The position numbers and the translations under genes are program-made. From an uncultured Eubacteriales bacterium (GTDB taxonomy: Bacteria > Bacillota > Clostridia > Oscillospirales > CAG-272): a stretch of 64,000 nucleotides of DNA. The notes below the pieces were generated by a model that was not told where the DNA came from, did no database searches, and saw nothing but the letters and a program-made list of their open reading frames with translations. This document shows, in pieces, positions 1,458 to 58,265 of the stretch. The stretch spans positions 91,905 through 155,904 of the forward strand of contig CAKSZH010000004.1 of NCBI GenBank assembly GCA_934525675.1. The letters are read 5' to 3'. The number at the start of each line of letters is the position of its first letter. The first letter of the stretch is position 1.

Positions 1458-2447
1458 TTACATCATATCATTTCCCACCGGTGTGAGGAACAGCTCGCGG
1501 AATTGTGCCGCCGTCTCCGTGCGGGGAAGCGCCCACATGACCTTTGCCACGACCGCTTCGGTTGTCATGTCGTATGCCTCCGGCAATTCGTATTTTTCCT
1601 TAATCCGGAGTCCGACCTGATACACCGTCATGTCGCTGCCCTCGTGCGGCACCTGTGTGGTGATGACCACCCTCACGCCGTGCCGGATGAGCAGCTCGAT
1701 TTTGTCGGCAAAGTCCGCCGTGTCGTAGTAGGGGATCCCGCCGACTCCGAAACTCTCAATGATGACCGCGTGCGTGTGCTCTGCAAGATAGTCGAATATG
1801 CCCGCGTCCATGCCGGGGATCAGCTTGATTACCGTAACAGATGAATCAATTTTGTCAAAAAACTCCGGGGTTCCCGTGACCGCCTCGTGAATATAGTACC
1901 GTACCCGATCGCCGCGGAGAAAGCCGATCTCGGGGTAATCGATGCTCGAGAATGCGTTGAAGCTCTTGGTGTGGGTCTTGCGGGCACGGGTCGCGGCAAT
2001 GATTTTGCCGTCAAACACGATGTGAACGCCGCACGCGCCGTCGTCCGTGGCATAACGGAATGCGTCGACAAGATTTTCTCTTGCATCGGTATCGCGCATA
2101 TTGATCGGAATCTGCGCTCCCGTCAGAACAACGGGTTTTCTGTTGTTTTGAATGAGGTAGTAGAGAAGTGCCGCGGCATATGCCATGGTGTCTGTTCCGT
2201 GGGTGATGACGAACCCGTCATAGCGGTCGTATTCCTCCCGGATGCGCCGGGCGATCAGAAGCCAGTTTTCCGGACGCATATTGGTGCTGTCCAGCCGGAA
2301 CATGGCTGCTGACGAGACGCGGCAGATCTCCCCGATCTCCGGAACGTATTCCAGCAACTCGTCTGAAGAAAGCTCGGGACAAAGTCCCTTGTCGGTCCGG
2401 GCGGAGGCAATGGTGCCGCCCGTCGTGATGAGCAGAATGTGTTTCAT
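1458..2447 (-). CDS. ansA: L-asparaginase, type I
   Basis: N-terminus MKHILLITTGGTIA carries the TGGTIA catalytic motif, with HGTDTM further in. Start moved to ATG 2447, inside ORF 1458..2483. Confidence 0.9.
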   Translation of the reverse strand: MKHILLITTGGTIASARTDKGLCPELSSDELLEYVPEIGEICRVSSAAMFRLDSTNMRPENWLLIARRIREEYDRYDGFVITHGTDTMAYAAALLYYLIQNNRKPVVLTGAQIPINMRDTDARENLVDAFRYATDDGACGVHIVFDGKIIAATRARKTHTKSFNAFSSIDYPEIGFLRGDRVRYYIHEAVTGTPEFFDKIDSSVTVIKLIPGMDAGIFDYLAEHTHAVIIESFGVGGIPYYDTADFADKIELLIRHGVRVVITTQVPHEGSDMTVYQVGLRIKEKYELPEAYDMTTEAVVAKVMWALPRTETAAQFRELFLTPVGNDMM

Positions 2448-2616
2448 GGTTTCCGTGTACCTCCCGCGGCAGTCCGCATACACTTTCTGTGCGGTGCTTT
2501 CCGTATTCTACGTTAGTGTAACACATTTTTGCGCGAAATACAACTGTTAAACGTTTTTCGGGGTGTATTTTGGGATGATTGGATAAAAATTTGCAAAAAA
2601 AGTAAAGAATTTTTCC

Positions 2617-2645
2617 TTTCAGTCCGACAAAAAGTGTGATATAAT
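2617..2645 (+). promoter_or_regulatory. candidate sigma-A promoter for galT (extended -10)
   Basis: TTTCAG, 17-nt spacer, then TGaTATAAT at 2637-2645, about 55 nt upstream of the galT start. Confidence 0.45.
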
Positions 2646-2698
2646 AGTACCGTATCAGATGCGGCTTTGCCGTATTGCAACTTTTGGGGGAGGACAGT

Positions 2699-4192
2699 AT
2701 GTCAAACATTTGCGGAACCATCAAAAAACTGGCGGATTATGCCGTCTCTCGCGGACTTGCGGAACAATCCGACCGCGACTATCTCATCAACGGCATTCTT
2801 GCCGCCCTCCGGTTGGGCGAGCTGACGGACGACGTCCGTGACGACGACCTTGATCTGGAAACCATGCTCGGCGACCTGTGTACATATGCCTATGAGGCGG
2901 GACTGATTGAATCCGACAGTGTGGCATACCGCGATCTGTTCGACACCTCTCTGATGGGGATTCTGACTCCCCGTCCGAGCGAGGTCATCGCGCGCTTTAC
3001 GGCTCTTTACAAGGAGTCTCCCGAGGCGGCGACCGATTATTTCTACAAGCTGTGCCGCGACTGCGATTATATCCGTACTTATCGCGTGAAGAAGGACCTC
3101 AAGTGGGTCTATGAAAGCGATTTCGGTCCGATCGATATTACCGTGAACCTGTCCAAGCCCGAAAAGGATCCCAAGGCGATCGCCGCCGCGAAATCCATGC
3201 CGCAGAGCGGGTACCCCAAGTGCCTTCTGTGCCACGAGAATGTCGGATATGCCGGTAACCCCGGACGTCCCGCACGTCAGAATCTCCGCCAGATTCCTCT
3301 GACCCTGGACGGCGAGGCGTGGTATCTGCAATATTCCCCGTATGTCTATTACAACGAGCACTGCATTGTCCTCTGCGGCGAGCATGTGCCCATGCGGATC
3401 ACCCGTTCCACCTTTGAAAACCAGCTTTCCTTCGTGGAGCAGTTCCCGCATTATTTTCTCGGCTCCAACGCCGATCTGCCCATCGTCGGCGGGTCGATCC
3501 TGACCCACGACCATATGCAGGGCGGACGCTACACCTTTGCCATGACCAAGGCACCGATTGAGAAGAGCATCACCTTCCGTGGCTTTGAGGACGTGGAGGC
3601 GGGGATCGTGCATTGGCCGCTTTCCACCATCCGCCTGCGCAGCGAGAAGAAGGAGCGCCTTGTGGAGCTTGCCGACAGGATTCTTGCGGCTTGGAGAGGG
3701 TATACCGATGAGAGCGCGTTTGTTTTTGCCGAGACGAACGGCGAGCCGCACAACACCATCACGCCCATCGCGCGTTATCAGAACGGAAAGCTGGAGCTTG
3801 ATCTGGTGCTCCGCAACAATATCACGACCGAGGAGTACCCCCTCGGCGTGTATCATCCGCATCCCGATAAGCACAATATCAAGAAAGAGAACATCGGACT
3901 GATTGAGGTCATGGGACTTGCCGTGCTTCCCTCCAGACTCAAGAAAGAGATCGGAATCATGAAGGAGTATATTCTCGCAGGCAAGGATTTCTCCGGAAAC
4001 GCGGACATCGCCAAGCACAAAGTGTGGTTTGAAGCGTTCCGCGACAAGTATCGGTTTACCGCGGACAACACGGAAGAGATTCTCAGACAGGAGATCGGCA
4101 AAACCTTTGCCGCCGTGCTGGAAGACGCGGGCGTGTACAAGTGCACCGAAGAGGGAAGAGCGGCGTTTATGCGCTTTGTCGCTTCGGTTTGA
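2699..4192 (+). CDS. galT: UDP-glucose--hexose-1-phosphate uridylyltransferase (type 2 GalT)
   Basis: About 500-aa Gram-positive type GalT. GGAGG RBS lies before ATG 2699 (MSNICGTIKKL). Motifs: CLLCHENVGYAG, SILTHDHMQGG. Confidence 0.9.
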   Translation: MSNICGTIKKLADYAVSRGLAEQSDRDYLINGILAALRLGELTDDVRDDDLDLETMLGDLCTYAYEAGLIESDSVAYRDLFDTSLMGILTPRPSEVIARFTALYKESPEAATDYFYKLCRDCDYIRTYRVKKDLKWVYESDFGPIDITVNLSKPEKDPKAIAAAKSMPQSGYPKCLLCHENVGYAGNPGRPARQNLRQIPLTLDGEAWYLQYSPYVYYNEHCIVLCGEHVPMRITRSTFENQLSFVEQFPHYFLGSNADLPIVGGSILTHDHMQGGRYTFAMTKAPIEKSITFRGFEDVEAGIVHWPLSTIRLRSEKKERLVELADRILAAWRGYTDESAFVFAETNGEPHNTITPIARYQNGKLELDLVLRNNITTEEYPLGVYHPHPDKHNIKKENIGLIEVMGLAVLPSRLKKEIGIMKEYILAGKDFSGNADIAKHKVWFEAFRDKYRFTADNTEEILRQEIGKTFAAVLEDAGVYKCTEEGRAAFMRFVASV

Positions 4193-4351
4193 ATCCCCGT
4201 AAAGTGATTCTTGCGCCGCCGGTGTAGCGGCAGTTCAGTCAAACGTTTTGTGCCGCCTGCATGGCGGCAGACCTGACAAACGGCGACGGTCCGGCAGTTC
4301 ATTTTGTCCGAGCGGTTGCCGTTTTGATATTTGAATGATAAGGAACCGACT

Positions 4352-4903
4352 ATGCTTCAAGAACAGCACACTGACAAAAACAATCTCATCCTCGTCGGAA
4401 TGCCCGGCGCGGGAAAATCAACGATCGGACGCGCGCTTGCAGAGCGGCTGGGGCTTTCCTTCTGCGACACGGACGACCTGCTCCGCGCTGCGACCGGCAT
4501 GACGCTGATCGAAATCCTCGATACATACGGCGTGGACGGCTTTATTGAACGCGAGAACCGACTCTGCGCGTCGCTTGATCTTCACGATACCGTGATTGCG
4601 ACGGGCGGAAGCGTGGTTTACGGTGCGGAAGCGATGGCGCACCTCGGCAAAATCGGGCGGGTGATCTATCTCTCCGTGTCCGAGGAGATCAACCTGTCCC
4701 ATCTGTCGGACCTGCCGACCCGCGGCGTGGTCATGCGAGCGGGGCAGACGTTTGCAGATCTTTACCGGGAACGCACGCCGCTTTATGAAAAGTACGCCGA
4801 CCTGATTGTGGATTGCGACGGTTTTACGCCGGAGGACGGTGGGGCGTCGGTGTGCGCCATTGTCGGAACGATCGAAAAGGAGTTGTCGGGCGCGCGCGTC
4901 TGA
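4352..4903 (+). CDS. aroK: shikimate kinase
   Basis: P-loop LILVGMPGAGKSTIGRALA and shikimate kinase architecture. ATG 4352 is preferred over the in-frame TTG 4331 used by the ORF track. Confidence 0.85.
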   Translation: MLQEQHTDKNNLILVGMPGAGKSTIGRALAERLGLSFCDTDDLLRAATGMTLIEILDTYGVDGFIERENRLCASLDLHDTVIATGGSVVYGAEAMAHLGKIGRVIYLSVSEEINLSHLSDLPTRGVVMRAGQTFADLYRERTPLYEKYADLIVDCDGFTPEDGGASVCAIVGTIEKELSGARV

Positions 4904-5454: not shown

Positions 5455-7551
5455 TTATTTCACCGCGTCGGTGCGGTAAATGAATTTGACCTTTCCGTCC
5501 ATGCCGTCCGCGATTCCCGAGAAGGACTTGTAATCACGGGACACATCGATGGTCGCACGCAGGCGCGTCACCGTTACGGAAAGACCGCCTTCCAGCGCCT
5601 CCGTGAGCTTGCTGATGCCTTCTTCATACAGTGTCGCAAGACCGTCGCGGAGCTGCATGGAGCCGTCGCGGAGCTGTTCCACGCCGGTGATGAGGGCGGG
5701 CGCGCCGTCCTTCATGGTCAGGATACCGTCAAGCAGTTCCTGCATTCCGGCATCCAGCGCGAGACTTCCGTCCTTCAGCTGTTCCGCACCGGTGGCGGCG
5801 TCCTTGACACCGTTTGTATAATCCTTCAATCCGGTGTAGAACTCATTGTAGCTGTCCAGCCCGGCAACCAGGGTATTGAGGCTTTCAAGACCGGGAGCCG
5901 CTTTTTTGATTGCTTCCTCAATCTGCGCCTTGACGCTGTCGGATTCCATGTTTTCTTCAATCAGGAGCGCAATCTGTTCTTCGGTCTTTTCTGCAATGAG
6001 AGCGGAGGTTTCTTCTTTCTCCATCACTGCCGTGACGTTCGCGCTGATGAGCGCCTGCACGTCGGCACTCTTCATCTGGTTGTCCACGGCGCTTCCCACA
6101 GCCGCCTGCCGGGCGGAAGTGATACTGCCGTCGGCAATCCCTGCGCGGTATGCTTCAGGGGTCAGCCCCATTGCGGCAAGTACTTTTTCCTCCACGCCTG
6201 CGCGGACGCTCGCCGTGACCTGTTCCGTGACCTGCGCCTGCACGGCGTTCTTCACGTTTGCCGCGATCAGGGAACGGTTGGCTTCCACCTGCGCGGTGAC
6301 GTTCTTTCTCGCCGTCTCGCGGATTCCCTCCTCCGAGAGAGAAGCAATGACGGCTTCCAGGGTGTCATGATAATTTTCAATGGTCAGAGTGGGGACGTCG
6401 GTCAGCCCGCCTGCCGCAAGCTGTGCGTTTGCCGTTGCAAGCAATGTATGGAAGACCGAAGCGGCGCCGCCGTTCAGACGGTCGTTGTTCGAGACGAGCG
6501 TTCCGAGTCCGTCGGAAAGTTGTCCCGCACCGGTGGCAAGATCGGCACTGCCGGCTTTGAGCTTTGCGGCACCCTCCGCCAGTTGATTGATACCCGCAAC
6601 CAGCTCATTGGATTTTTCCAGAAGCGTGCAGACGCCGTCGTACAGCGCGGAAGAACCGTCCACGAGTTTGGTCACACCATCCGTCAGTTCCGCCAGCTTT
6701 CCGGAAAGCTCGTCGAGATTGTCGAAGACGGAGGGATCCAGTTGGTTGAAGAGATCGTTGGTCGCAACGGTCACGGTACCCGCGAGTCTGAATTCCTTTG
6801 CGTCTGCGGCGATCTCCACATAGGAGGGAATCTCAAACCGATCGTCGGTGAGGGCAAGGTTGTCGGAAAGTCCGGGGAATGCCAGCCCGACGACGGCAAT
6901 GCGGTCGCCGTCATTGATGAGTTTGCCGTTGGTCACCGTCACGTTGGTGAATACGTCGTTGTCAAGGAGAACGCCGGTCAGCATGGCGAAGGGAACGTAG
7001 ATCTTCTGCTTCTCTCCGTCGATTTCGACGGTCTCATACTGGCGGTTTTCATACTCCACACGGATGGTCACTTTACCGCTCTTGCCGGCAATTTCCGCGG
7101 CGGAGAGTTCCTTGCCGTCAAGCAGGTAGGTGATCTTCATGCCGACGGGCAGTTCTTTGTCAAGATTACCGCGGTAGTAGATGTCCTTGCCGTCGGCGTC
7201 CCAGATCACGGCGCCGTCGGAGCCGGTGGTGTAGGATTCGTCGCCCTTGACATTTTCAGGATTCTGCAATTCACTCTTGTCGGCGAGGCTGCCTTCCTTC
7301 AGGGAGTTCTTCAGCCAGTCGCTGACGATCAGCTTTTTGATACTGCCGTCGGCGGACGCGATGACATAAACGGTCTCGTTCTTTTCGGGAACGGAGGCGT
7401 CCGTGTTGCCGATAGCGGGAGCATCCTCCCGGGGAGCAGAGTCGGACTCCCTGGTCTGACCGGTTACGGCAAACACCGTCGCCGTTGCGCCGCCGCAGAT
7501 GAGAACGGCGGAAAGAATGATGCAAAGGATTCTCAGTTTTTTCTGTTTCAT
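5455..7551 (-). CDS. membrane-anchored YhgE/Pip-like protein with LxxG heptad-repeat coiled coil
   Basis: N-terminal signal anchor (MKQKKLRILCIILSAVLICGG), a beta-rich domain, then long runs of L-x-x-G type heptads (LVDGSSALYDG, LAEGAAKLKAG, LKDGSLALDAG). GAGGAGG RBS. Confidence 0.75.
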   Translation of the reverse strand: MKQKKLRILCIILSAVLICGGATATVFAVTGQTRESDSAPREDAPAIGNTDASVPEKNETVYVIASADGSIKKLIVSDWLKNSLKEGSLADKSELQNPENVKGDESYTTGSDGAVIWDADGKDIYYRGNLDKELPVGMKITYLLDGKELSAAEIAGKSGKVTIRVEYENRQYETVEIDGEKQKIYVPFAMLTGVLLDNDVFTNVTVTNGKLINDGDRIAVVGLAFPGLSDNLALTDDRFEIPSYVEIAADAKEFRLAGTVTVATNDLFNQLDPSVFDNLDELSGKLAELTDGVTKLVDGSSALYDGVCTLLEKSNELVAGINQLAEGAAKLKAGSADLATGAGQLSDGLGTLVSNNDRLNGGAASVFHTLLATANAQLAAGGLTDVPTLTIENYHDTLEAVIASLSEEGIRETARKNVTAQVEANRSLIAANVKNAVQAQVTEQVTASVRAGVEEKVLAAMGLTPEAYRAGIADGSITSARQAAVGSAVDNQMKSADVQALISANVTAVMEKEETSALIAEKTEEQIALLIEENMESDSVKAQIEEAIKKAAPGLESLNTLVAGLDSYNEFYTGLKDYTNGVKDAATGAEQLKDGSLALDAGMQELLDGILTMKDGAPALITGVEQLRDGSMQLRDGLATLYEEGISKLTEALEGGLSVTVTRLRATIDVSRDYKSFSGIADGMDGKVKFIYRTDAVK

Positions 7552-30550: not shown

Positions 30551-31111
30551 TCAGCTGTTCTTTCCGACGATTGCCTTCTGCCAGTCTTCCCGGTAAATAT
30601 CCGGATAGCGGAACTCCGGGTGTTTTTTCATGTATGCGCGGTTGAAGGGACGCTCCAGAAACCGCTTGAAGCGGAAGAACGCATCGGTACGGTCCTTGAT
30701 GGGCGGCACGATAAGGGTGCGTGCACCCGCACGCTTGCCGGCGAGCGCGTCGGTGAGAAGCTGATCGCCGAGTACCGCGGTTTCCTCCGGTGTGACACCG
30801 AGTTCGCGCATGGCAAGCAGCAGTTTTTTCTTCTTCGGCTTTCCGCACTCGGTAAAGAAGGGAAGCCCGATCTTCCGATTAAAACGCTCCACGCGCGGCG
30901 CGTGGTTGTTTGAGAGGATCGCCATGCGGATCCCTGCCTTTTGCATATCTGAAAACCAGTCCAGGTTTTTCTCGTCCGGCTCGGGCTGCTCATAGGGCGC
31001 CAGCGTGTTGTCAATGTCGATGAGCAGGGCGCGGATGCCAATAGAGGAGAGAAACGCGGGCGTCACCTCGCGGTAGGAATAAAACATATAATCCGGGACC
31101 AGCCGTGACAC
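30551..31111 (-). CDS. yqeG: YqeG-family HAD-IIIA phosphatase
   Basis: DIDNTL motif I, SNN and GDQLLTD motifs. GTG 31111 follows an AAGGAGG RBS and restores the conserved N-terminal (M)SRLVPDY. Confidence 0.8.
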   Translation of the reverse strand: MSRLVPDYMFYSYREVTPAFLSSIGIRALLIDIDNTLAPYEQPEPDEKNLDWFSDMQKAGIRMAILSNNHAPRVERFNRKIGLPFFTECGKPKKKKLLLAMRELGVTPEETAVLGDQLLTDALAGKRAGARTLIVPPIKDRTDAFFRFKRFLERPFNRAYMKKHPEFRYPDIYREDWQKAIVGKNS

Positions 31112-31258
31112 GCGCACACCTCCTTTATGTCTTTTCTGCCGAAAAGGCAGATTTGCATACGAATACATCTAATCATATCACAAAAGGGGCGGCAATATCA
31201 AGTATTTTGTGTGAAAAAGCCAAATTTGCGTTCTCCGAAAAAAATATTCGGAATTCTC

Positions 31259-31287
31259 TTGACAAAAATCTTTGGGTATGCTATGAT
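31259..31287 (+). promoter_or_regulatory. sigma-A promoter of the tRNA cluster
   Basis: TTGACA, 17-nt spacer, TGcTATGAT. The -10 hexamer ends 26 nt upstream of the first tRNA. Confidence 0.8.
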
Positions 31288-31313
31288 AGTAAAGCGGTTT
31301 TCAAGACGCATAT

Positions 31314-31387
<74 letters not shown>

Positions 31388-31391
31388 ATAC

Positions 31392-31468
<77 letters not shown>

Positions 31469-31483
31469 CTGTTTTCTTTATAT

Positions 31484-31561
31484 GGTGGGATTAGCGCAGT
31501 TGGTTAGCGCGCCAGGTTGTGGCCCTGGAGGTCATGGGTTCAATTCCCATATCTCACCCCA
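31484..31561 (+). tRNA. tRNA-His (anticodon GUG) with encoded G-1
   Basis: The extra 5' G pairs with discriminator C. Anticodon loop TTGTGGC, GGTTCAATTCC T-arm, encoded CCA. Confidence 0.9.
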
Positions 31562-31564
31562 GTC

Positions 31565-31594
31565 AAAAATCCGAGGTAAAAACCTCGGATTTTT
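31565..31594 (+). terminator. intrinsic terminator of the tRNA cluster
   Basis: AAAAATCCGAGG / 6-nt loop / CCTCGGATTTTT. Confidence 0.85.
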
Positions 31595-31811
31595 GTGTTG
31601 CGTGCACAATTTGAGTACCGCGTTTATGTATAATCTGAACAATTCCGCCGGTGAATTTCACTCGAAAAAGAAGGCTTTCAAATTTTTGTTCCTGATTTTG
31701 TTCCCGATTGAACCCACGAGTGAACCCTCATTTTGCGCCGTTTTTTGCCTCTGTTTTGGCACCCGATTCCGGGGAGAAACCGGCAGCGCTCCCGGTCGCT
31801 TTGCGGGGGAA

Positions 31812-32798
31812 TCACCCCTGTGCCCGTCGGACGTCCGCAAGGTGCTTGCGGAACCCCTCGACTACCGGGGCGGGGGAGAGGATCCGCATTTTGCCGCCGA
31901 AGCCGAACACCCACGAATAGAACTGCGAGCTGACCATCACGCGCTGATGAATTTCAAAGGAATTCTGCTTTTTGATGATCGTCAGATCTTCGCCGAAACG
32001 GTCGATCACCACGCCGATGAGACTGTTGTCGCAGTCAAGCGTTACGATCTCCTGCCTTCCGCCGAACATTCCGAACACCTCGCGGGAGTAGAGCGCCATG
32101 TCGAAATCGTCGAACAGCTCCTTCCCCTCGCGCGGGGTATCCGTCACGGTGATCCGCAGCATTTTGTCCACCCGGTAGTGGTGGATCATTTTTTTCATGT
32201 GGTCATAGGCGACGAGGTAATAATTCTCATTGTCCCATGTGAGTGCAAAGGGACTGACCGTGTACAGCGCTCCGCCGTGCCGGAGAATCTTTTCCTTGTC
32301 CGTGTTCCATTCAAAGTACTGAAAGGTGACCGCGCGGTTGGAGGAAATGGCGCGGTGGAGGTTGTCTACATTATAATACACCTGTTCGTTGTCGGTCTTG
32401 ACCCGCCCCGTGACAAACACCTGCCGGTCAAGCTGACGCGCCTCGTAAGTACTGGTGAATGACGCAATTTTTGCGATCAGCTCGGTACTTTTTTTCTTTG
32501 TGATGAATTTGGAGGACTGTACCGCGTCCACGAGCAACTTAAGCTCGGGGAGCTGGAAGGTACGCTCCGCGATGTAGTACCCGCCGTCCTTGCCGCCGCG
32601 CCGCTCCACGGGGATTCCGAAGGTGCGGAGCGCCTCCATGTCGTCGTACAGGCTCTTGCGCTCCGCGCTGATCCCGAGCGAGGCGAGCGACTCCTGAATT
32701 TCGGCAAGCGTCAGAACGTGCGCGTCGTCGGTACGTTCCTCCAGCATCCGCATGAGGTAGAGGATCTTCAGCTTCTGGTTGGTGGATTTCGGCATCAT
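31812..32798 (-). CDS. WYL-domain transcriptional regulator (wHTH-WYL-WCX; YafY/BrxR/CapW-like architecture)
   Basis: N-terminal wHTH (KLKILYLMRMLEERTDDAHVLTLAEIQESL). Central WYL-type SH3 barrel (AVTFQYF...LYTVSPFALTWDNENYYLVAYD). C-terminal extension domain. Confidence 0.85.
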   Translation of the reverse strand: MMPKSTNQKLKILYLMRMLEERTDDAHVLTLAEIQESLASLGISAERKSLYDDMEALRTFGIPVERRGGKDGGYYIAERTFQLPELKLLVDAVQSSKFITKKKSTELIAKIASFTSTYEARQLDRQVFVTGRVKTDNEQVYYNVDNLHRAISSNRAVTFQYFEWNTDKEKILRHGGALYTVSPFALTWDNENYYLVAYDHMKKMIHHYRVDKMLRITVTDTPREGKELFDDFDMALYSREVFGMFGGRQEIVTLDCDNSLIGVVIDRFGEDLTIIKKQNSFEIHQRVMVSSQFYSWVFGFGGKMRILSPAPVVEGFRKHLADVRRAQG

Positions 32799-32823
32799 TC
32801 GTCACTCCTTTCCGTTCCTCTTC

Positions 32824-32852
32824 ATTTTAACACACTTTTTTCCGAAAGTAAA
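32824..32852 (-). promoter_or_regulatory. candidate promoter of the WYL regulator
   Basis: On the minus strand: TTTACT, 17-nt spacer, TGtTAAAAT, about 25 nt upstream of ATG 32798. Confidence 0.55.
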
Positions 32853-32882
32853 GAGAATTGACCGTTTTATCGGACATATCTC

Positions 32883-32899
32883 CGGGTATACTGTATCCG
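32883..32899. promoter_or_regulatory. imperfect palindrome over the only -10-like hexamer of the divergent cassette (candidate WYL operator)
   Basis: CGGGTATA-c-TGTATCCG (6 of 8 arm positions symmetric) spans TATACT at 32887-32892. No good -35 lies at 17 nt. Confidence 0.3.
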
Positions 32900-32939
32900 T
32901 AACCAAAAGAAAAGAACGGAAAGAAAAGGAGTAAGCGGT

Positions 32940-33152
32940 ATGGTAAACAAAAAAGCGGTACGGAGGAAAAATAAGAAGATTTTGCTGATTGCACTGTCGG
33001 TACTCGGACTGGCGGTTGCGGCAAACCTGGTCGCCGTCGGGTACGGAGTGTCTTTCGGTGCGGGGCTTTTGCTCGTCATCACGGTCGGACTGCTGACGCT
33101 CTGCGTAATCGGCGGGGTGCGCCGGAAGGAGGTGGCATACAATGAGAAATGA
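32940..33152 (+). CDS. 70-aa two-TM membrane microprotein with a basic N-terminus
   Basis: AAGGAG RBS. MVNKKAVRRKNKK followed by two hydrophobic helices. 11-nt overlap with the next gene. Confidence 0.6.
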   Translation: MVNKKAVRRKNKKILLIALSVLGLAVAANLVAVGYGVSFGAGLLLVITVGLLTLCVIGGVRRKEVAYNEK

Positions 33153-33495
33153 TCTCATCTACATATGCTCCCCCTATTCCGGGAACACCGAAGCCAACAC
33201 GCTCCGCGCAAGAGAATACTGCCGTGCGGCGATGGAGGAGGGCTTTTTGCCCGTTGCTCCGCACCTGTATTTTCCGCAGTTTCTGGACGACGGGCTTCCC
33301 GAAGAGCGGGAAACGGGTCTTCGTATCTGCGAGCGTCTGCTTTGCCGTTGCCGGGAGGTCTGGGTGTTCGGCGGGCGGATTTCGGCGGGGATGAAGCGGG
33401 AGATGGCGTGTGCCGAGGCAAACGGCATTCCTGTCCGCTATTTCAACGATGTGAGCAGCGTCCACCCGCGCCTGGACGGGTGCCGGGCAATCTGA
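33142..33495 (+). CDS. nucleoside 2-deoxyribosyltransferase-like (DUF4406/DUF1937-type flavodoxin-fold) protein
   Basis: N-terminus LIYICSPYSG, then PVAPHLYFPQFLDD..EER..GL and a VWVFGGRISAGM segment, as recalled for NDT/Rcl-like small proteins. The exact family needs an HMM. Confidence 0.55.
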   Translation: MRNDLIYICSPYSGNTEANTLRAREYCRAAMEEGFLPVAPHLYFPQFLDDGLPEERETGLRICERLLCRCREVWVFGGRISAGMKREMACAEANGIPVRYFNDVSSVHPRLDGCRAI

Positions 33496-33516
33496 GCCTT
33501 TATCCGGGGAGGCGGC

Positions 33517-33551
33517 AAAAAGGGACTGAAATCGGTCCCTTTTTCTTTTTT
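33517..33551 (+). terminator. intrinsic terminator of the two-gene cassette
   Basis: AAAAAGGGAC / 8-nt loop / GTCCCTTTTTCTTTTTT. Confidence 0.85.
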
Positions 33552-33571
33552 GAAAATATTTCAAATACCTC

Positions 33572-33600
33572 TTGACACACAATACTATGCGTAATATAAT
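33572..33600 (+). promoter_or_regulatory. sigma-A promoter of the padR operon, flanked by a TATGCGT direct repeat
   Basis: TTGACA, 17-nt spacer, TATAAT. TATGCGTAA and TATGCGTCA bracket the -10. Confidence 0.8.
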
Positions 33601-33623
33601 ATTATGCGTCAGGGGGTGACCTC

Positions 33624-33956
33624 ATGGATGTACAACTCAAGCGCGGCATTCTGGATGTCTGTGTGCTCGCGGCGCTTCTGCAGGGAGAGTCCTACGGATA
33701 CCAGATCGTTCAGGACCTTGCAGGGCACGGGATTGAGATCTCGGAATCCACGCTGTATCCGATCCTTCGTCGGCTGGAGTCGGCGGGATGCCTCTCGGAG
33801 GACAGCCGCGCGCACAACGGCAGGCTCCGCAAGTATTACCGGATGACGGACGCCGGCAGGGAAAGAATCAACGGCTTCCTCGAAGAATGGAAAACGGTCA
33901 TGAATGTCTATACTTTTATTGAAACGGAGATGGGAAGCCATGAAGCAGATGAATAA
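33624..33956 (+). CDS. padR: PadR-family transcriptional regulator
   Basis: LDVCVLAALLQGESYGYQIVQDL...STLYPILRRLE...RKYYRMTDAG. Confidence 0.9.
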   Translation: MDVQLKRGILDVCVLAALLQGESYGYQIVQDLAGHGIEISESTLYPILRRLESAGCLSEDSRAHNGRLRKYYRMTDAGRERINGFLEEWKTVMNVYTFIETEMGSHEADE

Positions 33957-34563
33957 GCGGGAGTTTTCGGACGCGCTCCGACGTGAGCTGAACGGGTACC
34001 CGACAGAAGAAGTCGAGCGGTCGGTTTCGTTTTATGAGGAAATGATCGATGACCGCGTGGAAAACGGAATGACGGAGGAAGCGGCGGTCGTGTCGCTCGG
34101 CTCCGTGGAAGAGATTGCAAAGAAAATCCGGGAGGAGATGCCGATCACGGCGATCGTCCGGAGCCGGGTGCAGAATACCTATGAAAAGCAGAAGAAAAAG
34201 ACAGGCGGATCGGCGCTTCCGTGGATCCTCCTTGCCGTGGTGCTCAGCCCGGTCTGGATCCCGCTTGCGATTACTGTGCTTGCTGTCTGGTTTGCGATTC
34301 TCGTTGCGGCGGTTGCTATTGTTGTTGCCGTATTCTGTACCGTGGTCGGATTACTGTTTGCCGCGGGGGCTTGCCTTGTCGCTCTCATCATGGCGGCGGG
34401 GACGGTCGGTCCCGGCGGGACCCTGTTCGGGGTAGGCTCGGTGCTGGTCTGCATCGGTTTGTCCATTCTTTTGTTCTGGGCGGCGATCGGAATCGGGAAA
34501 GCCCTGTATACAGGCATCCGCGCCCTGTTCCGTGCCATCAAGCGCGGGCTGTCGCGCAAATGA
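33940..34563 (+). CDS. DUF1700-family membrane protein (PadR-operon partner)
   Basis: MNKREFSDALRRELNGYPTEEVERSVSFYEEMIDD, followed by TM helices. Overlaps the padR stop. Confidence 0.8.
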   Translation: MKQMNKREFSDALRRELNGYPTEEVERSVSFYEEMIDDRVENGMTEEAAVVSLGSVEEIAKKIREEMPITAIVRSRVQNTYEKQKKKTGGSALPWILLAVVLSPVWIPLAITVLAVWFAILVAAVAIVVAVFCTVVGLLFAAGACLVALIMAAGTVGPGGTLFGVGSVLVCIGLSILLFWAAIGIGKALYTGIRALFRAIKRGLSRK

Positions 34564-34608
34564 CGGGGAAATGCGGTTCTATGATATGACAGAAAGGGAG
34601 AAAATACT

Positions 34609-35679
34609 ATGAAAAAAGCATTGTGTATCTGTCTCATCATTGCGGCAGTTCTGCTGGTCGCGGGTGGGGTGTGTATGACGGTCGGATTCTTCCGGAACGG
34701 CGGATTTCCGTCGCTGTCCGGAAAAGAGTTTGAGGAGAAAACATTGACCTTCCCCAAAGAAACCAAAGAGATCCGGACAGATCTCGGGGTTCAGGACATC
34801 CTTGTCCGGCCGGGCGAGGACGATGAGATCCGCGTCCGTTGGTTCGAGGCAGAGAACGAACCGCTGCACGTTGCCTCCTCGGACGGGGTCGTGTCGGTCA
34901 CCAATCCGGAAAAGAACGGGTTTCATTTCTTTTGGGATTGGTTCTGGTATAAGGAAAAGAAACTGCTTGTGACCATTGAGCTTCCGGCAGAGTTTGCGGG
35001 TAGCCTGACGCTTGTTACCGATATCGGCAACATTGAAGTGCTGGCTGTGCAGGTTCCCGGCGGGGGACTGACGGTCCGGGTATCGACCGGCTCGGTAAAG
35101 ATCGCGGATTGTGCATTTGCGTCGGCGGAAATCCGGGCGACGACCGGCGGAACGGAACTGGAAAACGTGACCGTCGGCGCGAGGGAGGGAACGACCGGTT
35201 CTCTCCGGATTGCGGCGGAGACCGGGGTGATCTTATGCCGGAACGTCGCGGCAAAAGACACGGAACTTTCCGCGTCCACCGGCAAAACGGAAACGGAGAA
35301 CCTCAGCTGTACCGCGTTTTCCTCCGTGACCTCGACCGGAGAACAGTCGCATACCCGCCTTACGGCGTCGGGAGACGCGGAGATCCGGGTAACGACCGGA
35401 GTCGTGGAGACGGACACCCTGACCGCCGGCGGCGCGCTCCGCGTCACCTCCACGACGGGGTCGCAGTCGCTTCATGGCATCCGCGCGGGCGTGTCGATCT
35501 GGCTGGAGGCAACGACCGGCAGCATCCGCGGCTCGCTCCGCGGAACGGAAAATTACTATGCAAAAGACTGTTCCTCCGGGACCGGCAATGTGCGTCTGCC
35601 GCAGTTTGCAGCAGGGGGAACGGTTCCCCTGACCGCCCGTACCACAACCGGCAGCATCCGGCTGGATGCCGCAGACTGA
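34609..35679 (+). CDS. DUF4097-family beta-strand-repeat protein (putative adhesin fold), N-terminally anchored
   Basis: TM anchor followed by a reiterated G-S/T-V/I-x-V/I right-handed beta-helix-like pattern (STGSVKIAD, TTGGTELEN, ETGVILCRN, STGKTETEN, TTGVVETDT, TTGSIRG). Confidence 0.8.
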   Translation: MKKALCICLIIAAVLLVAGGVCMTVGFFRNGGFPSLSGKEFEEKTLTFPKETKEIRTDLGVQDILVRPGEDDEIRVRWFEAENEPLHVASSDGVVSVTNPEKNGFHFFWDWFWYKEKKLLVTIELPAEFAGSLTLVTDIGNIEVLAVQVPGGGLTVRVSTGSVKIADCAFASAEIRATTGGTELENVTVGAREGTTGSLRIAAETGVILCRNVAAKDTELSASTGKTETENLSCTAFSSVTSTGEQSHTRLTASGDAEIRVTTGVVETDTLTAGGALRVTSTTGSQSLHGIRAGVSIWLEATTGSIRGSLRGTENYYAKDCSSGTGNVRLPQFAAGGTVPLTARTTTGSIRLDAAD

Positions 35680-57269: not shown

Positions 57270-58265
57270 ATGAATCTTGAAGGAAGAGATTTTCTCAAGC
57301 TGCTCGACTATACCCCGGAGGAAATCGCGGGGCTGATTGACCTTGCGGCACAACTCAAGGCAAAGAAAAAGGCGGGCATTCCTCACAGGCTGTGCGAGGG
57401 AAAGAATGTCGCTCTGATTTTCGAGAAGACCAGTACCCGTACCCGGTGCGCCTTTGAGGTCGCTGCACGCGATCTCGGCATGGGAGCGACTTATCTGGAC
57501 CCCTCCGGTTCGCAGATCGGCAAAAAGGAAAGCATTGCCGACACCGCGCGGGTACTTTCCCGGATGTTTGACGGTATCGAGTACCGCGGATTCGGGCAGA
57601 GCATTGTGGAGGAGCTTGCAAAATACGCGACGGTCCCCGTGTGGAACGGACTCACCGACGAGTTTCACCCGACCCAGATTTTAGCGGATTTCCTCACCAT
57701 CCGGGAGCATTTCGGACGCCTTGCGGGAATCAATTTTGTGTACATGGGCGACGCGAGATACAATATGGGCAACTCGCTCATGGTGGGCTGTGCCAAGATG
57801 GGGATGCATTTCACCGCCTGCGCCCCGAAGAAGTATTTCCCCGATCCCGCACTCGTGGAGGAGTGCCGCAGGATTGCCGCGACGACGGGCGCCACGCTGA
57901 CCTTTGAGACCGACCCCGGGAAAGCCGTGCCGGGCGCGGATGTCCTCTATACCGACATCTGGGTCTCCATGGGCGAGCCGGTGGAGGTCTGGGAGGAGCG
58001 CATCCGCGATCTGTCCCCCTATCAGGTCAACTCCGCGTTGATGAAGGCGGCGGGGGAGAATGCCGTATTCATGCACTGCCTGCCGTCCTATCACGATCTG
58101 AAGACAAAGATCGGACGCGAAATGGGCGAGCGGTTCGGACGGGACTCGATGGAAGTGACCGACGAAGTGTTCGAGAGCCCCGCCTCCATCGTATTTGACG
58201 AGGCGGAAAACCGGATGCACACCATCAAGGCGGTCATGGCGGCAACGCTCGGCGCGTCGCTCTGA
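57270..58265 (+). CDS. argF: ornithine carbamoyltransferase
   Basis: [13 protein letters not shown] and HCLP motifs. Confidence 0.93.

Follow-up and report, generated by a model that had tools for sequence, protein, structure and literature searches.

A predicted DriD-like WYL regulator, its candidate operator and a lineage-specific two-gene cassette in an uncultured Eubacteriales bacterium

What does a WYL-domain transcription factor control when the genes divergent from it encode an orphan membrane protein and a member of a largely phage-borne protein family? The question is raised by a locus in a 64,000-nucleotide (nt) stretch of DNA from an uncultured Eubacteriales bacterium (contig CAKSZH010000004.1, positions 91,905 to 155,904; the whole stretch is hereafter the window, and its coordinates are used below). 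A transcription factor gene on the minus strand (31812..32798), assigned by Pfam matches and an AlphaFold2 (AF2) model to the winged helix-turn-helix (wHTH), three-helix linker, WYL and WCX architecture (327/328 amino acids [aa]), is divergent from a plus-strand cassette. The cassette comprises genes for a 70-aa orphan membrane protein with two transmembrane helices (32940..33152; identified by its open reading frame [ORF], hydropathy and substitution rates) and a 117-aa DUF7768 protein with a predicted fold of the nucleoside 2′-deoxyribosyltransferase (NDT)/DNPH1 (Rcl) type (33142..33495; Pfam PF24963 plus AF2/Foldseek), and is closed by an intrinsic terminator (stem-loop and T-run, 33517..33551, plus strand), of which the 12-bp stem and T-run at 33517-33544 fold at −24.6 kcal/mol (z = −3.2). 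An earlier note on this DNA had proposed that the three genes form one WYL-gated phage-defence or stress-response module; the features that it listed (the ORFs, an 11-nt overlap between the cassette genes, the divergent layout, the terminator and a tRNA cluster 250 nt away) were all found where it had placed them, the ORFs by ORF listing. We regard the regulatory architecture of the locus as well supported, and infer its physiological role. The reading to which we lean is that a DriD-like WYL activator, probably sensing single-stranded DNA (ssDNA), induces the orphan membrane protein together with a phage-derived nucleotide enzyme. The locus looks like one lineage's version of a circuit type already known, in which a WYL-activator-type promoter serves a small membrane effector, here with an unusual, apparently phage-derived passenger enzyme, and the main new result is an operator rule that appears to hold across the regulator family: wGTCC-N8-GGACA, 10 nt, a −10 box and no −35 element.

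Operator and promoter geometry

Alignment of the intergenic DNA with that of a sister species showed one conserved block, GAATTGACCGwTTTATCGGACA plus TATACT, with the DNA between and around these elements diverged. The block holds an inverted repeat, TGACCGTTTTATCGGACA (32859..32876, unstranded), exactly 10 nt upstream of the cassette's −10 hexamer TATACT (32887..32892, plus strand; read from the sequence and kept in the sister species). The repeat reads TGACC-GTTTTATC-GGACA in the window, against a family consensus of wGTCC-N8-GGACA (in fuller form, wGTCC-GtTTTATy-GGACA), and its conservation in the sister species and recurrence beside WYL homologues make it the candidate operator. It spans approximately −40 to −23 of the cassette promoter, covering the −35 position, and precedes the −35 of the WYL gene's own promoter by 6 nt, so that both divergent promoters share one site. 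The WYL promoter (32824..32852, minus strand; promoter scan) consists of −35 TTTACT, 17 nt and an extended −10, TGT-TAAAAT, with 9/12 matches for TTTACT-17-TAAAAT; it is kept in sister contigs L027 and L028 (TTTACT-17-TAAGAT), and a third, L033, aligns as a gap there. TATACT, as also noted before, has no usable −35 (best 2/6 matches) and carries no TGn extension, and since it has neither, the cassette promoter should be weak unaided.

The earlier note had placed the operator in a palindrome around the −10 box, CGGGTATA-c-TGTATCCG. That palindrome exists, with 6/8 pairs (5/8 in the sister species), and was missed by a repeat search, but it is probably not the operator, the conserved repeat lying instead at 32859-32876. 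TTGACC at 32858-32863 was rejected as a −35 because at 23 nt from TATACT it is too far away, and it is the left half of the inverted repeat. LexA-type control through a GAACGGAAAG/CTTTCCGTTC repeat was likewise rejected, this repeat being the two ribosome-binding regions of the divergent genes. Two further candidate boxes in the window were discarded: one at 58012 lies inside coding-looking DNA with no −10 box, and one at 2612-2645 (plus strand; TTTCCTTTCAGTCCGACA, 8/10) lies 10 nt upstream of an extended −10 TATAAT, with about 1.5 such chance matches expected per window, and is probably an ordinary promoter. In an Rfam scan of 31000-34000 only three tRNAs passed, with no riboswitch or leader.

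The same repeat adjoins WYL homologues of 45-60% identity in unrelated genomic contexts, mostly with a −10-like hexamer after exactly 10 nt. Over 39 repeats, a set that includes the window's own and near-duplicate sister-species copies, 16 −10-like hexamers stood at +10 against at most five at any other offset from 0 to 23. With the window excluded, a −10 hexamer was found at +10 in 15/31 repeats from WYL loci of ≥45% identity (221 kb), in 0/7 from WYL loci of 40-44% identity (343 kb) and in 1/86 from control loci (851 kb). None of the 16 tabulated family promoters has a usable −35 (1-4 of 6 matches). In some genomes an extra copy of the box was seen past the −10 of the regulator's promoter (L023, at 4960) or immediately ahead of the regulator's ribosome-binding site (L125), both being positions typical of autorepression; such off-register autoregulatory sites are consistent with a fixed geometry being needed only where the regulator activates.

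Judged from operator conservation and promoter geometry, the WYL protein probably binds the repeat at 32859-32876 and controls the cassette, in agreement with the earlier suggestion that the cassette promoter is regulator-dependent and the WYL protein its likely regulator. The sign of that control is less firmly predicted. A protein bound over approximately −40 to −23 would also block polymerase, as it would if a BrxR/CapW-type repressor silenced a toxic two-gene defence or abortive-infection cassette until phage or DNA damage released it, the membrane peptide then damaging the membrane and the NDT-fold enzyme depleting or altering nucleotides. We consider this explanation unlikely. It has to accommodate a cassette promoter without −35 or TGn, which should be weak even when unrepressed, and a spacing of exactly 10 nt across lineages, which is the need of an activator and not of a repressor. 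Because the spacing is exact, the window's promoter has neither −35 nor TGn and the regulator is structurally close to known activators (see below), we regard activation as the likelier mode at the cassette promoter.

Small membrane proteins are the recurrent output of the box. It drives small proteins of 73-82 aa with two transmembrane helices in L023, L127, L131, L138 and L141, which form two families unrelated to each other and to the window's 70-aa protein. Its other targets are an operon of an AAA_3 ATPase and DUF2201 (L023) and VWA-domain proteins (L124, L137), and in L025, L122, L130 and L136 it drives the regulator gene itself. In L023, from an Oscillospiraceae genome, the box with its 10-nt spacing precedes two operons (2379-4854 and 6048-7298), namely the AAA_3 ATPase with DUF2201, and a 73-aa two-helix protein with a 273-aa protein bearing a SWIM-like CxCxxxxxCxH motif. 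With a third box, which overlaps the 5′ region of the regulator itself, these make up a small local regulon. A conserved family of 52-82-aa two-helix proteins with the motif IIGTAGASD and a basic C-terminus (L127:3688-3918, L131:201-446, L138:188-415, L141:96-344 and L135:40-198) is encoded directly upstream of, and co-oriented with, WYL homologues of 45-49% identity. The box precedes the IIGTAGASD gene in L127, L131, L138 and L141, and none was seen on the short L135 contig.

The regulator and its structural relatives

Gene callers start the WYL protein at the second ATG, giving 327 aa (the longest ORF encodes 328 aa). The protein exceeds the Pfam gathering scores for WYL (PF13280: 45.8 bits against 21.8, E = 6e-12) and WCX (PF25583: 25.1 bits against 23.9, E = 2e-5); no Pfam HTH model was above threshold for its N-terminus, where a weak FokI_D3 match stood alone. 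The AF2 model (predicted local distance difference test [pLDDT] 74.8) has a wHTH, a three-helix linker, WYL and WCX, with the N-terminal wHTH modelled as helices at residues 5-21, 30-39 and 46-58 and a beta hairpin at 63-75, and the WCX as an alpha/beta C-domain at 247-326, so that the wHTH-WYL-WCX identity given to the regulator in the earlier note is upheld. The nearest PDB structures to the model are DriD (5e-15) and PafBC (9e-13), then CapW (3e-8) and BrxR (1e-7), and the model aligns full-length to all four. In a profile search the family profile of the regulator matched the DriD C-domain at 3e-9; phmmer gave no sequence orthology to DriD (E ∼0.5-0.6). Four of the seven mapped positions that contact ssDNA in DriD (residues from PMC9186387) are retained or conservatively replaced (Y192 by Y193, W206 by Y207, R207 by R208 and Y240 by F244), and the contact residue R204 is K in the family consensus and H205 in the window's regulator.

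More than 8000 homologues of the regulator were found, hundreds of them ∼57-61% identical, ∼328 aa long and from Oscillospiraceae, Ruminococcaceae and Clostridia metagenome-assembled genomes (MAGs). The family is large and mainly chromosomal in Clostridia (Oscillospiraceae and relatives), and viral contigs gave 11 matches to it. Neighbours of the homologues vary by genome (lipoproteins, small membrane proteins, AAA_3 with DUF2201, VWA and zinc-ribbon proteins) and are mostly non-defence genes. In a more distant WYL clade from the human gut (L142-L193; ∼40-42% identity), which lacks the wGTCC-N8-GGACA box, the regulator gene usually follows one for a ∼142-147-aa protein that bears a DRAAQFAPFAAL motif and looks YolD-like; the next ORF in some of these loci, judged by eye, looks like a transposase. 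The context of this clade hints at mobile elements or mutagenesis.

DriD of Caulobacter crescentus, which acts in an SOS-independent damage response, is switched on by ssDNA (PMC9186387) and induces didA, encoding a 71-aa membrane protein that blocks division (PMC4211646). Its promoters combine a DriD site with a −10 box and no identifiable −35, the site overlapping the −35 position at constant distance (PMC13004042), and its palindrome is CGAC-N7-GTCG as quoted in PMC13010146. The window's locus resembles the DriD-didA pair in its regulator (a homodimer-type wHTH/three-helix linker/WYL/WCX protein of ∼327 aa, with DriD the best structural match and several ssDNA-contact residues kept), in a palindromic operator with short half-sites 7-8 nt apart, in the placing of that operator over an absent −35 position, with constant spacing to the −10 box both in the window and at 15 other sites, and in a target membrane protein of ∼70 aa (70 here, 71 in DidA). 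The two differ in phylum and in operator sequence. DidA has one transmembrane helix, whereas the window's protein has two and no detectable family membership; didA is monocistronic and not adjacent to driD, whereas the target here is divergent from the regulator and is joined by an NDT-fold gene. Within the window, nothing was seen to connect the regulator with recA or with repair genes.

Other WYL activators offer a looser comparison. PafBC of mycobacteria activates DNA-damage genes through a −26 element (PMC11804915), DdaA, likewise an activator of DNA-damage-response genes, induces in Acinetobacter the division inhibitor AciT together with recA (PMC13010146) and SiwR of Mycobacterium smegmatis controls adjacent genes (PMC10693628). 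All three share the domain architecture of the window's regulator, and PafBC is its second-best structural match. However, PafBC works as a heterodimer, by way of a −26 element and sigma adaptation; repair genes, which were not seen in the window, dominate the regulons of all three, and no member of the three shows sequence-level orthology to the window's regulator. BrxR and CapW, the latter a repressor that also senses ssDNA (PMC11662680), likewise have the wHTH-WYL-WCX architecture, with a palindrome as operator next to an operon that is either divergent or adjacent, but their structural match is weaker (1e-7 to 1e-8 against 5e-15), the window's regulator has no adjacent defence system and the fixed-spacing promoter geometry without a −35 points to activation.

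Several observations weigh against an activator of the DriD kind. Identity to DriD in the structural alignment is ∼20%, and two of its ssDNA-contact arginines, R176 and R178, are not conserved (A176 and Y178 in the regulator). Nine of the 16 family promoters carry TGn, an extended −10 that could let them fire in the absence of a −35, and a repressor bound over −40 to −23 would account for these equally well. About 40% of WYL-homologue loci (e.g., L021) have no box beside the gene, and the 64-kb window holds one strong box only, so that nothing in it ties the regulator to genes of DNA repair. Between the 70-aa protein and the other small transmembrane proteins linked to WYL genes no homology was found, so their recurrence is one of analogy and not of common descent. 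The topology of the 70-aa protein, two transmembrane helices with charged termini, would also suit a holin-like or membrane-damaging peptide; no Pfam or PHROG holin family matches it.

The repressor explanation gains from several of these points, and further from the precedent of WYL repressors that gate defence and sense ssDNA, which is established (PMC9122601, PMC11662680). NDT-fold enzymes do cleave N-glycosidic bonds, as a nucleotide-depleting effector would. In L023 the box precedes an AAA_3 ATPase gene and then a DUF2201 gene, a pairing that seems to resemble MoxR-vWA conflict-type pairs. Set against this, PADLOC found no defence system at the locus, its matches being two generic WYL models to the regulator and none to either cargo protein, and the modelled structure of the regulator is nearer to the activators. 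Nor is the regulator adjacent to a recognised anti-phage system, its neighbours being a PadR-HAAS-DUF4097 operon, tRNAs and a HAD phosphatase. Neither databases nor gene neighbourhoods speak for a repressor-gated toxic or defence cassette, and the defence role proposed in the earlier note is not sustained, given generic WYL matches only, a regulator nearer to DriD and PafBC than to BrxR and CapW, and homologues that mostly lie beside non-defence genes. A DriD-like activator remains the reading that we carry forward to the cassette itself.

The cassette proteins and the history of the trio

Hydropathy of the 70-aa protein indicates a basic N-terminus, two hydrophobic transmembrane helices and a short charged C-terminus. 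In the sister species the protein is 57% identical, with a ratio of nonsynonymous to synonymous substitution (dN/dS) of 0.29 at dS ∼1.07. This purifying selection, the pair of hydrophobic helices and an AGGAG placed 8 nt ahead of the start codon ATG together show the ORF to be a real gene for a two-helix membrane protein, as had been proposed. It is an orphan, present in just two clusters among 1.84 billion representative proteins and without a family in Pfam, NCBIfam or PADLOC; its sole PHROG match was phrog_27503 (unknown function), at E = 0.024. The gene for the 117-aa protein has its own Shine-Dalgarno sequence (AAGGAGG, 9 nt before the ATG), and with the 11-nt overlap it would be translationally coupled to the 70-aa gene in a bicistronic operon.

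The 117-aa protein matches Pfam DUF7768 (PF24963) over model positions 2-98 of 98 with 135.4 bits against a cut-off of 26 (E = 9e-40), DUF4406 marginally, at 3e-4, and PHROG 355, annotated as nucleoside 2-deoxyribosyltransferase, at 2e-32. It falls below the gathering score of Nuc_deoxyrib_tr (PF05014; 14 bits against 28.8, E = 0.059), and neither NCBIfam nor PADLOC gave a match. A sequence search of the PDB returned spurious hits only (designed kelch repeats, dienelactone hydrolase), so a fold search was needed instead. The AF2 model, built with 50 homologues in the alignment, has a pLDDT of 87.5, and Foldseek placed it nearest to the NDT 8pqr (E = 9e-5, template modelling score 0.71), then to DNPH1 8rpt, 6evs, 1t1j and BcmB 4jen; its fold neighbours are thus nucleoside 2′-deoxyribosyltransferase, human DNPH1 and the CMP N-glycosidase BcmB, which bears out the NDT/Rcl-like character noticed earlier. 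Across the family alignment H41, F47, R56, C70, G83, M84 and A91 are invariant, and S10, P11, G14, N19, P40, Q46, L48 and E87 nearly so (E87 in ≥90%). E87, within S-x-G-M-x-x-E, aligns with the glutamate of the DNPH1 motif GVGYELG in a weak hhalign comparison (E = 0.089) that used a provisional DNPH1 sequence; the motifs are consistent, but the score is too weak for the alignment to serve as proof. The model therefore suggests an N-glycosidase/transferase fold with a plausible catalytic glutamate. The protein shares with the NDT/DNPH1/BcmB-MilB superfamily its fold (with the template modelling score given above to CtNDT), and a glycine-rich first-strand motif, and may share S-x-G-M-x-x-E, whose glutamate falls on the DNPH1 nucleophile in the same weak alignment. 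It is set apart by its PF05014 score, by an invariant loop of its own (P-H-x-Y-F-P-Q-F-L-D-D), by R56 and C70, and by being typically phage-encoded beside replication genes, and DUF7768 is a family separate from PF05014. In the literature, DUF7768 and DUF4406 are barely mentioned.

DUF7768 gave at least 599 matches in viral contigs. In 80 sampled loci its immediate neighbours included family-A DNA polymerase (18), DUF5906/VapE/D5 primase-helicases (14, 9 and 7), Bro/ANT antirepressors and XRE regulators, and at the threshold used no WYL model matched any of these neighbours. Beyond the clade, the nearest homologue (61% identity) lies in a module of DUF2800 nuclease, Enc34-type ssDNA-binding protein, PolA, Bro/ANT, DUF7768, VapE, HNH and SNF2. 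The window's protein lacks the ∼25-aa N-terminal extension of most phage copies, and a short, 110-aa DUF7768 form occurs in the same kind of phage replication module. These are phage replication modules and not defence islands, which again tells against a repressed defence cassette, and the simplest history of the chromosomal gene would be capture from a phage. In a mobile-element group (L196:4644-4976, L197:4638-4976), a 110-aa HTH_DeoR/HTH_11 protein without a WYL domain is encoded directly upstream of DUF7768; its HTH type is the same as that which heads many WYL regulators.

The trio is not a conserved system. Its linkage is confined to the window's species and one sister species, so the view of the three genes as one system does not extend beyond these two. 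The sister species keeps the whole divergent layout and the 11-nt overlap, with 83% identity for DUF7768, 83% for the regulator and 57% for the 70-aa protein. In 16 genome and 80 viral DUF7768 loci, tblastn found no detectable relative of the WYL protein or the 70-aa protein; no DUF7768 was present in 86 loci with WYL homologues, and DUF7768 together with this box was found in the window's clade only. Outside that narrow clade, homologues of the 117-aa protein thus have no conserved small transmembrane gene or WYL neighbour, an outcome that the earlier note had itself named as contrary to its proposal.

Alternatively, the cassette could be a domesticated leftover of a mobile element. A DUF7768 gene from a phage would then have come by chance to lie behind a small ORF peculiar to the lineage, close to a tRNA integration hot spot; the WYL protein would mainly autoregulate, and the cassette would serve no joint purpose other than ordinary nucleoside salvage. 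The phage-borne distribution of DUF7768 (its viral matches against the 11 of the WYL family), the phage module that holds its closest outside homologue, the orphan status of the 70-aa protein and strain variation after the tRNA-His gene all fit such a history, but we consider it improbable. All three genes are under purifying selection at dS ∼1 (dN/dS 0.11 for DUF7768, 0.10 for the regulator and 0.29 for the 70-aa gene), and the sister species retains the overlap, the two ribosome-binding sites, the operator and the −10 box. The operator stands in the same register as at 15 other WYL-linked promoters and is therefore hard to explain by chance adjacency. Integration of the trio at a tRNA site was rejected because of the lack of a nearby integrase, the lack of an attachment-site repeat and a host-like GC content. 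Base composition across the trio is likewise host-like and the flanks are housekeeping in character, which, with the lack of conservation of the trio, also disfavours a repressor-gated defence cassette. We therefore return to a WYL-activated cassette whose second gene was probably acquired from a phage.

The surroundings are those of an ordinary chromosomal region. On one side of the trio lie an M24 peptidase, an AP-endonuclease-2 TIM barrel and a YqeG-like HAD phosphatase, and on the other a PadR-HAAS-DUF4097 operon followed by GDSL and MBOAT genes; loci identical to this one, or nearly so, are present on contigs of human-gut metagenomes and in a MAG of an uncultured Eubacteriales bacterium recovered from Hadza samples. 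The tRNA-Gly/Arg/His cluster (31314-31561) ends 250 nt from the WYL stop codon, and between tRNA-His and the 3′ end of the WYL gene stands a bidirectional terminator hairpin (A5-stem-loop-stem-T5; 31565..31594, both strands), which folds at ∼−21 kcal/mol on either strand (z ∼−6.2 and −6.6) with a uridine tail both ways. In the same species, one contig (L002:2847-4605) carries a 1759-bp insertion directly past the tRNA-His terminator, replacing 150 bp (window ∼31597-31746), with ORFs of 160 aa and 255 aa, the latter with a weak LPD3 polyvalent-protein domain, both unrelated to the trio. The insertion ends with a tRNA 3′-end-like fragment and then a second copy of the terminator hairpin, which suggests the remnant of an element integrated at the tRNA; this 1.76-kb insertion is the strain variation referred to above. 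Directly past the cassette terminator, a perfect sigma-70 consensus promoter (TTGACA-17-TATAAT, 12/12; 33572-33600) drives the operon of PadR, a HAAS-domain membrane protein and a DUF4097 "toastrack" protein (33624-35679), which looks like an envelope-stress module.

Proposed mechanism and meaning

In the mechanism that we propose, a WYL dimer most likely binds wGTCC-N8-GGACA where a −35 would otherwise stand, 10 nt before the −10 box, and, like DriD and PafBC, most likely helps RNA polymerase onto an intrinsically weak promoter. If DriD, PafBC, DdaA and CapW are a guide, the trigger would probably be ssDNA or another nucleic-acid signal of DNA damage or foreign-DNA invasion. The 70-aa membrane protein, a recurrent type of target, may be comparable in function to the division inhibitor DidA, bringing about a division pause or an envelope change. 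The DUF7768 enzyme, from a phage-replication family, was apparently recruited as a lineage-specific add-on; its presumed activity is the cleavage or transfer of N-glycosidic bonds in deoxynucleosides or deoxynucleotides, by which the pool would be balanced or sanitised. Repeat binding, activation, the ssDNA signal and the roles of both cargo proteins are all proposed from the likeness to characterised WYL systems.

WYL activators of DNA-damage responses have so far been worked out in Caulobacter, actinobacteria and Acinetobacter, and our literature search returned no description of a WYL-activator DNA-damage regulon in Firmicutes or Clostridia. More tentatively, and as a possibility that we hold to be well short of probable, gut Clostridia (Oscillospiraceae and relatives) might possess a widespread, hitherto undescribed, ssDNA-sensing WYL-activator regulon parallel to LexA, marked by the box wGTCC-N8-GGACA 10 nt upstream of the −10 and with small membrane outputs that pause division or change the envelope, to which the window's version would add a phage NDT-fold enzyme acting on the deoxynucleotide pool. 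The trio is no new defence system, and catalogues of such systems should omit it. For DUF7768, a protein that abounds in phages, the locus supplies a first non-phage context, one that is probably stress-regulated, and three families of small membrane proteins (the window's 70-aa protein, the 73-aa protein of L023 and the IIGTAGASD family) are flagged as candidate effectors. The operator and promoter rule offers a testable handle on this regulator family, through regulon mapping in gut Clostridia by motif scan and the design of binding and reporter assays.

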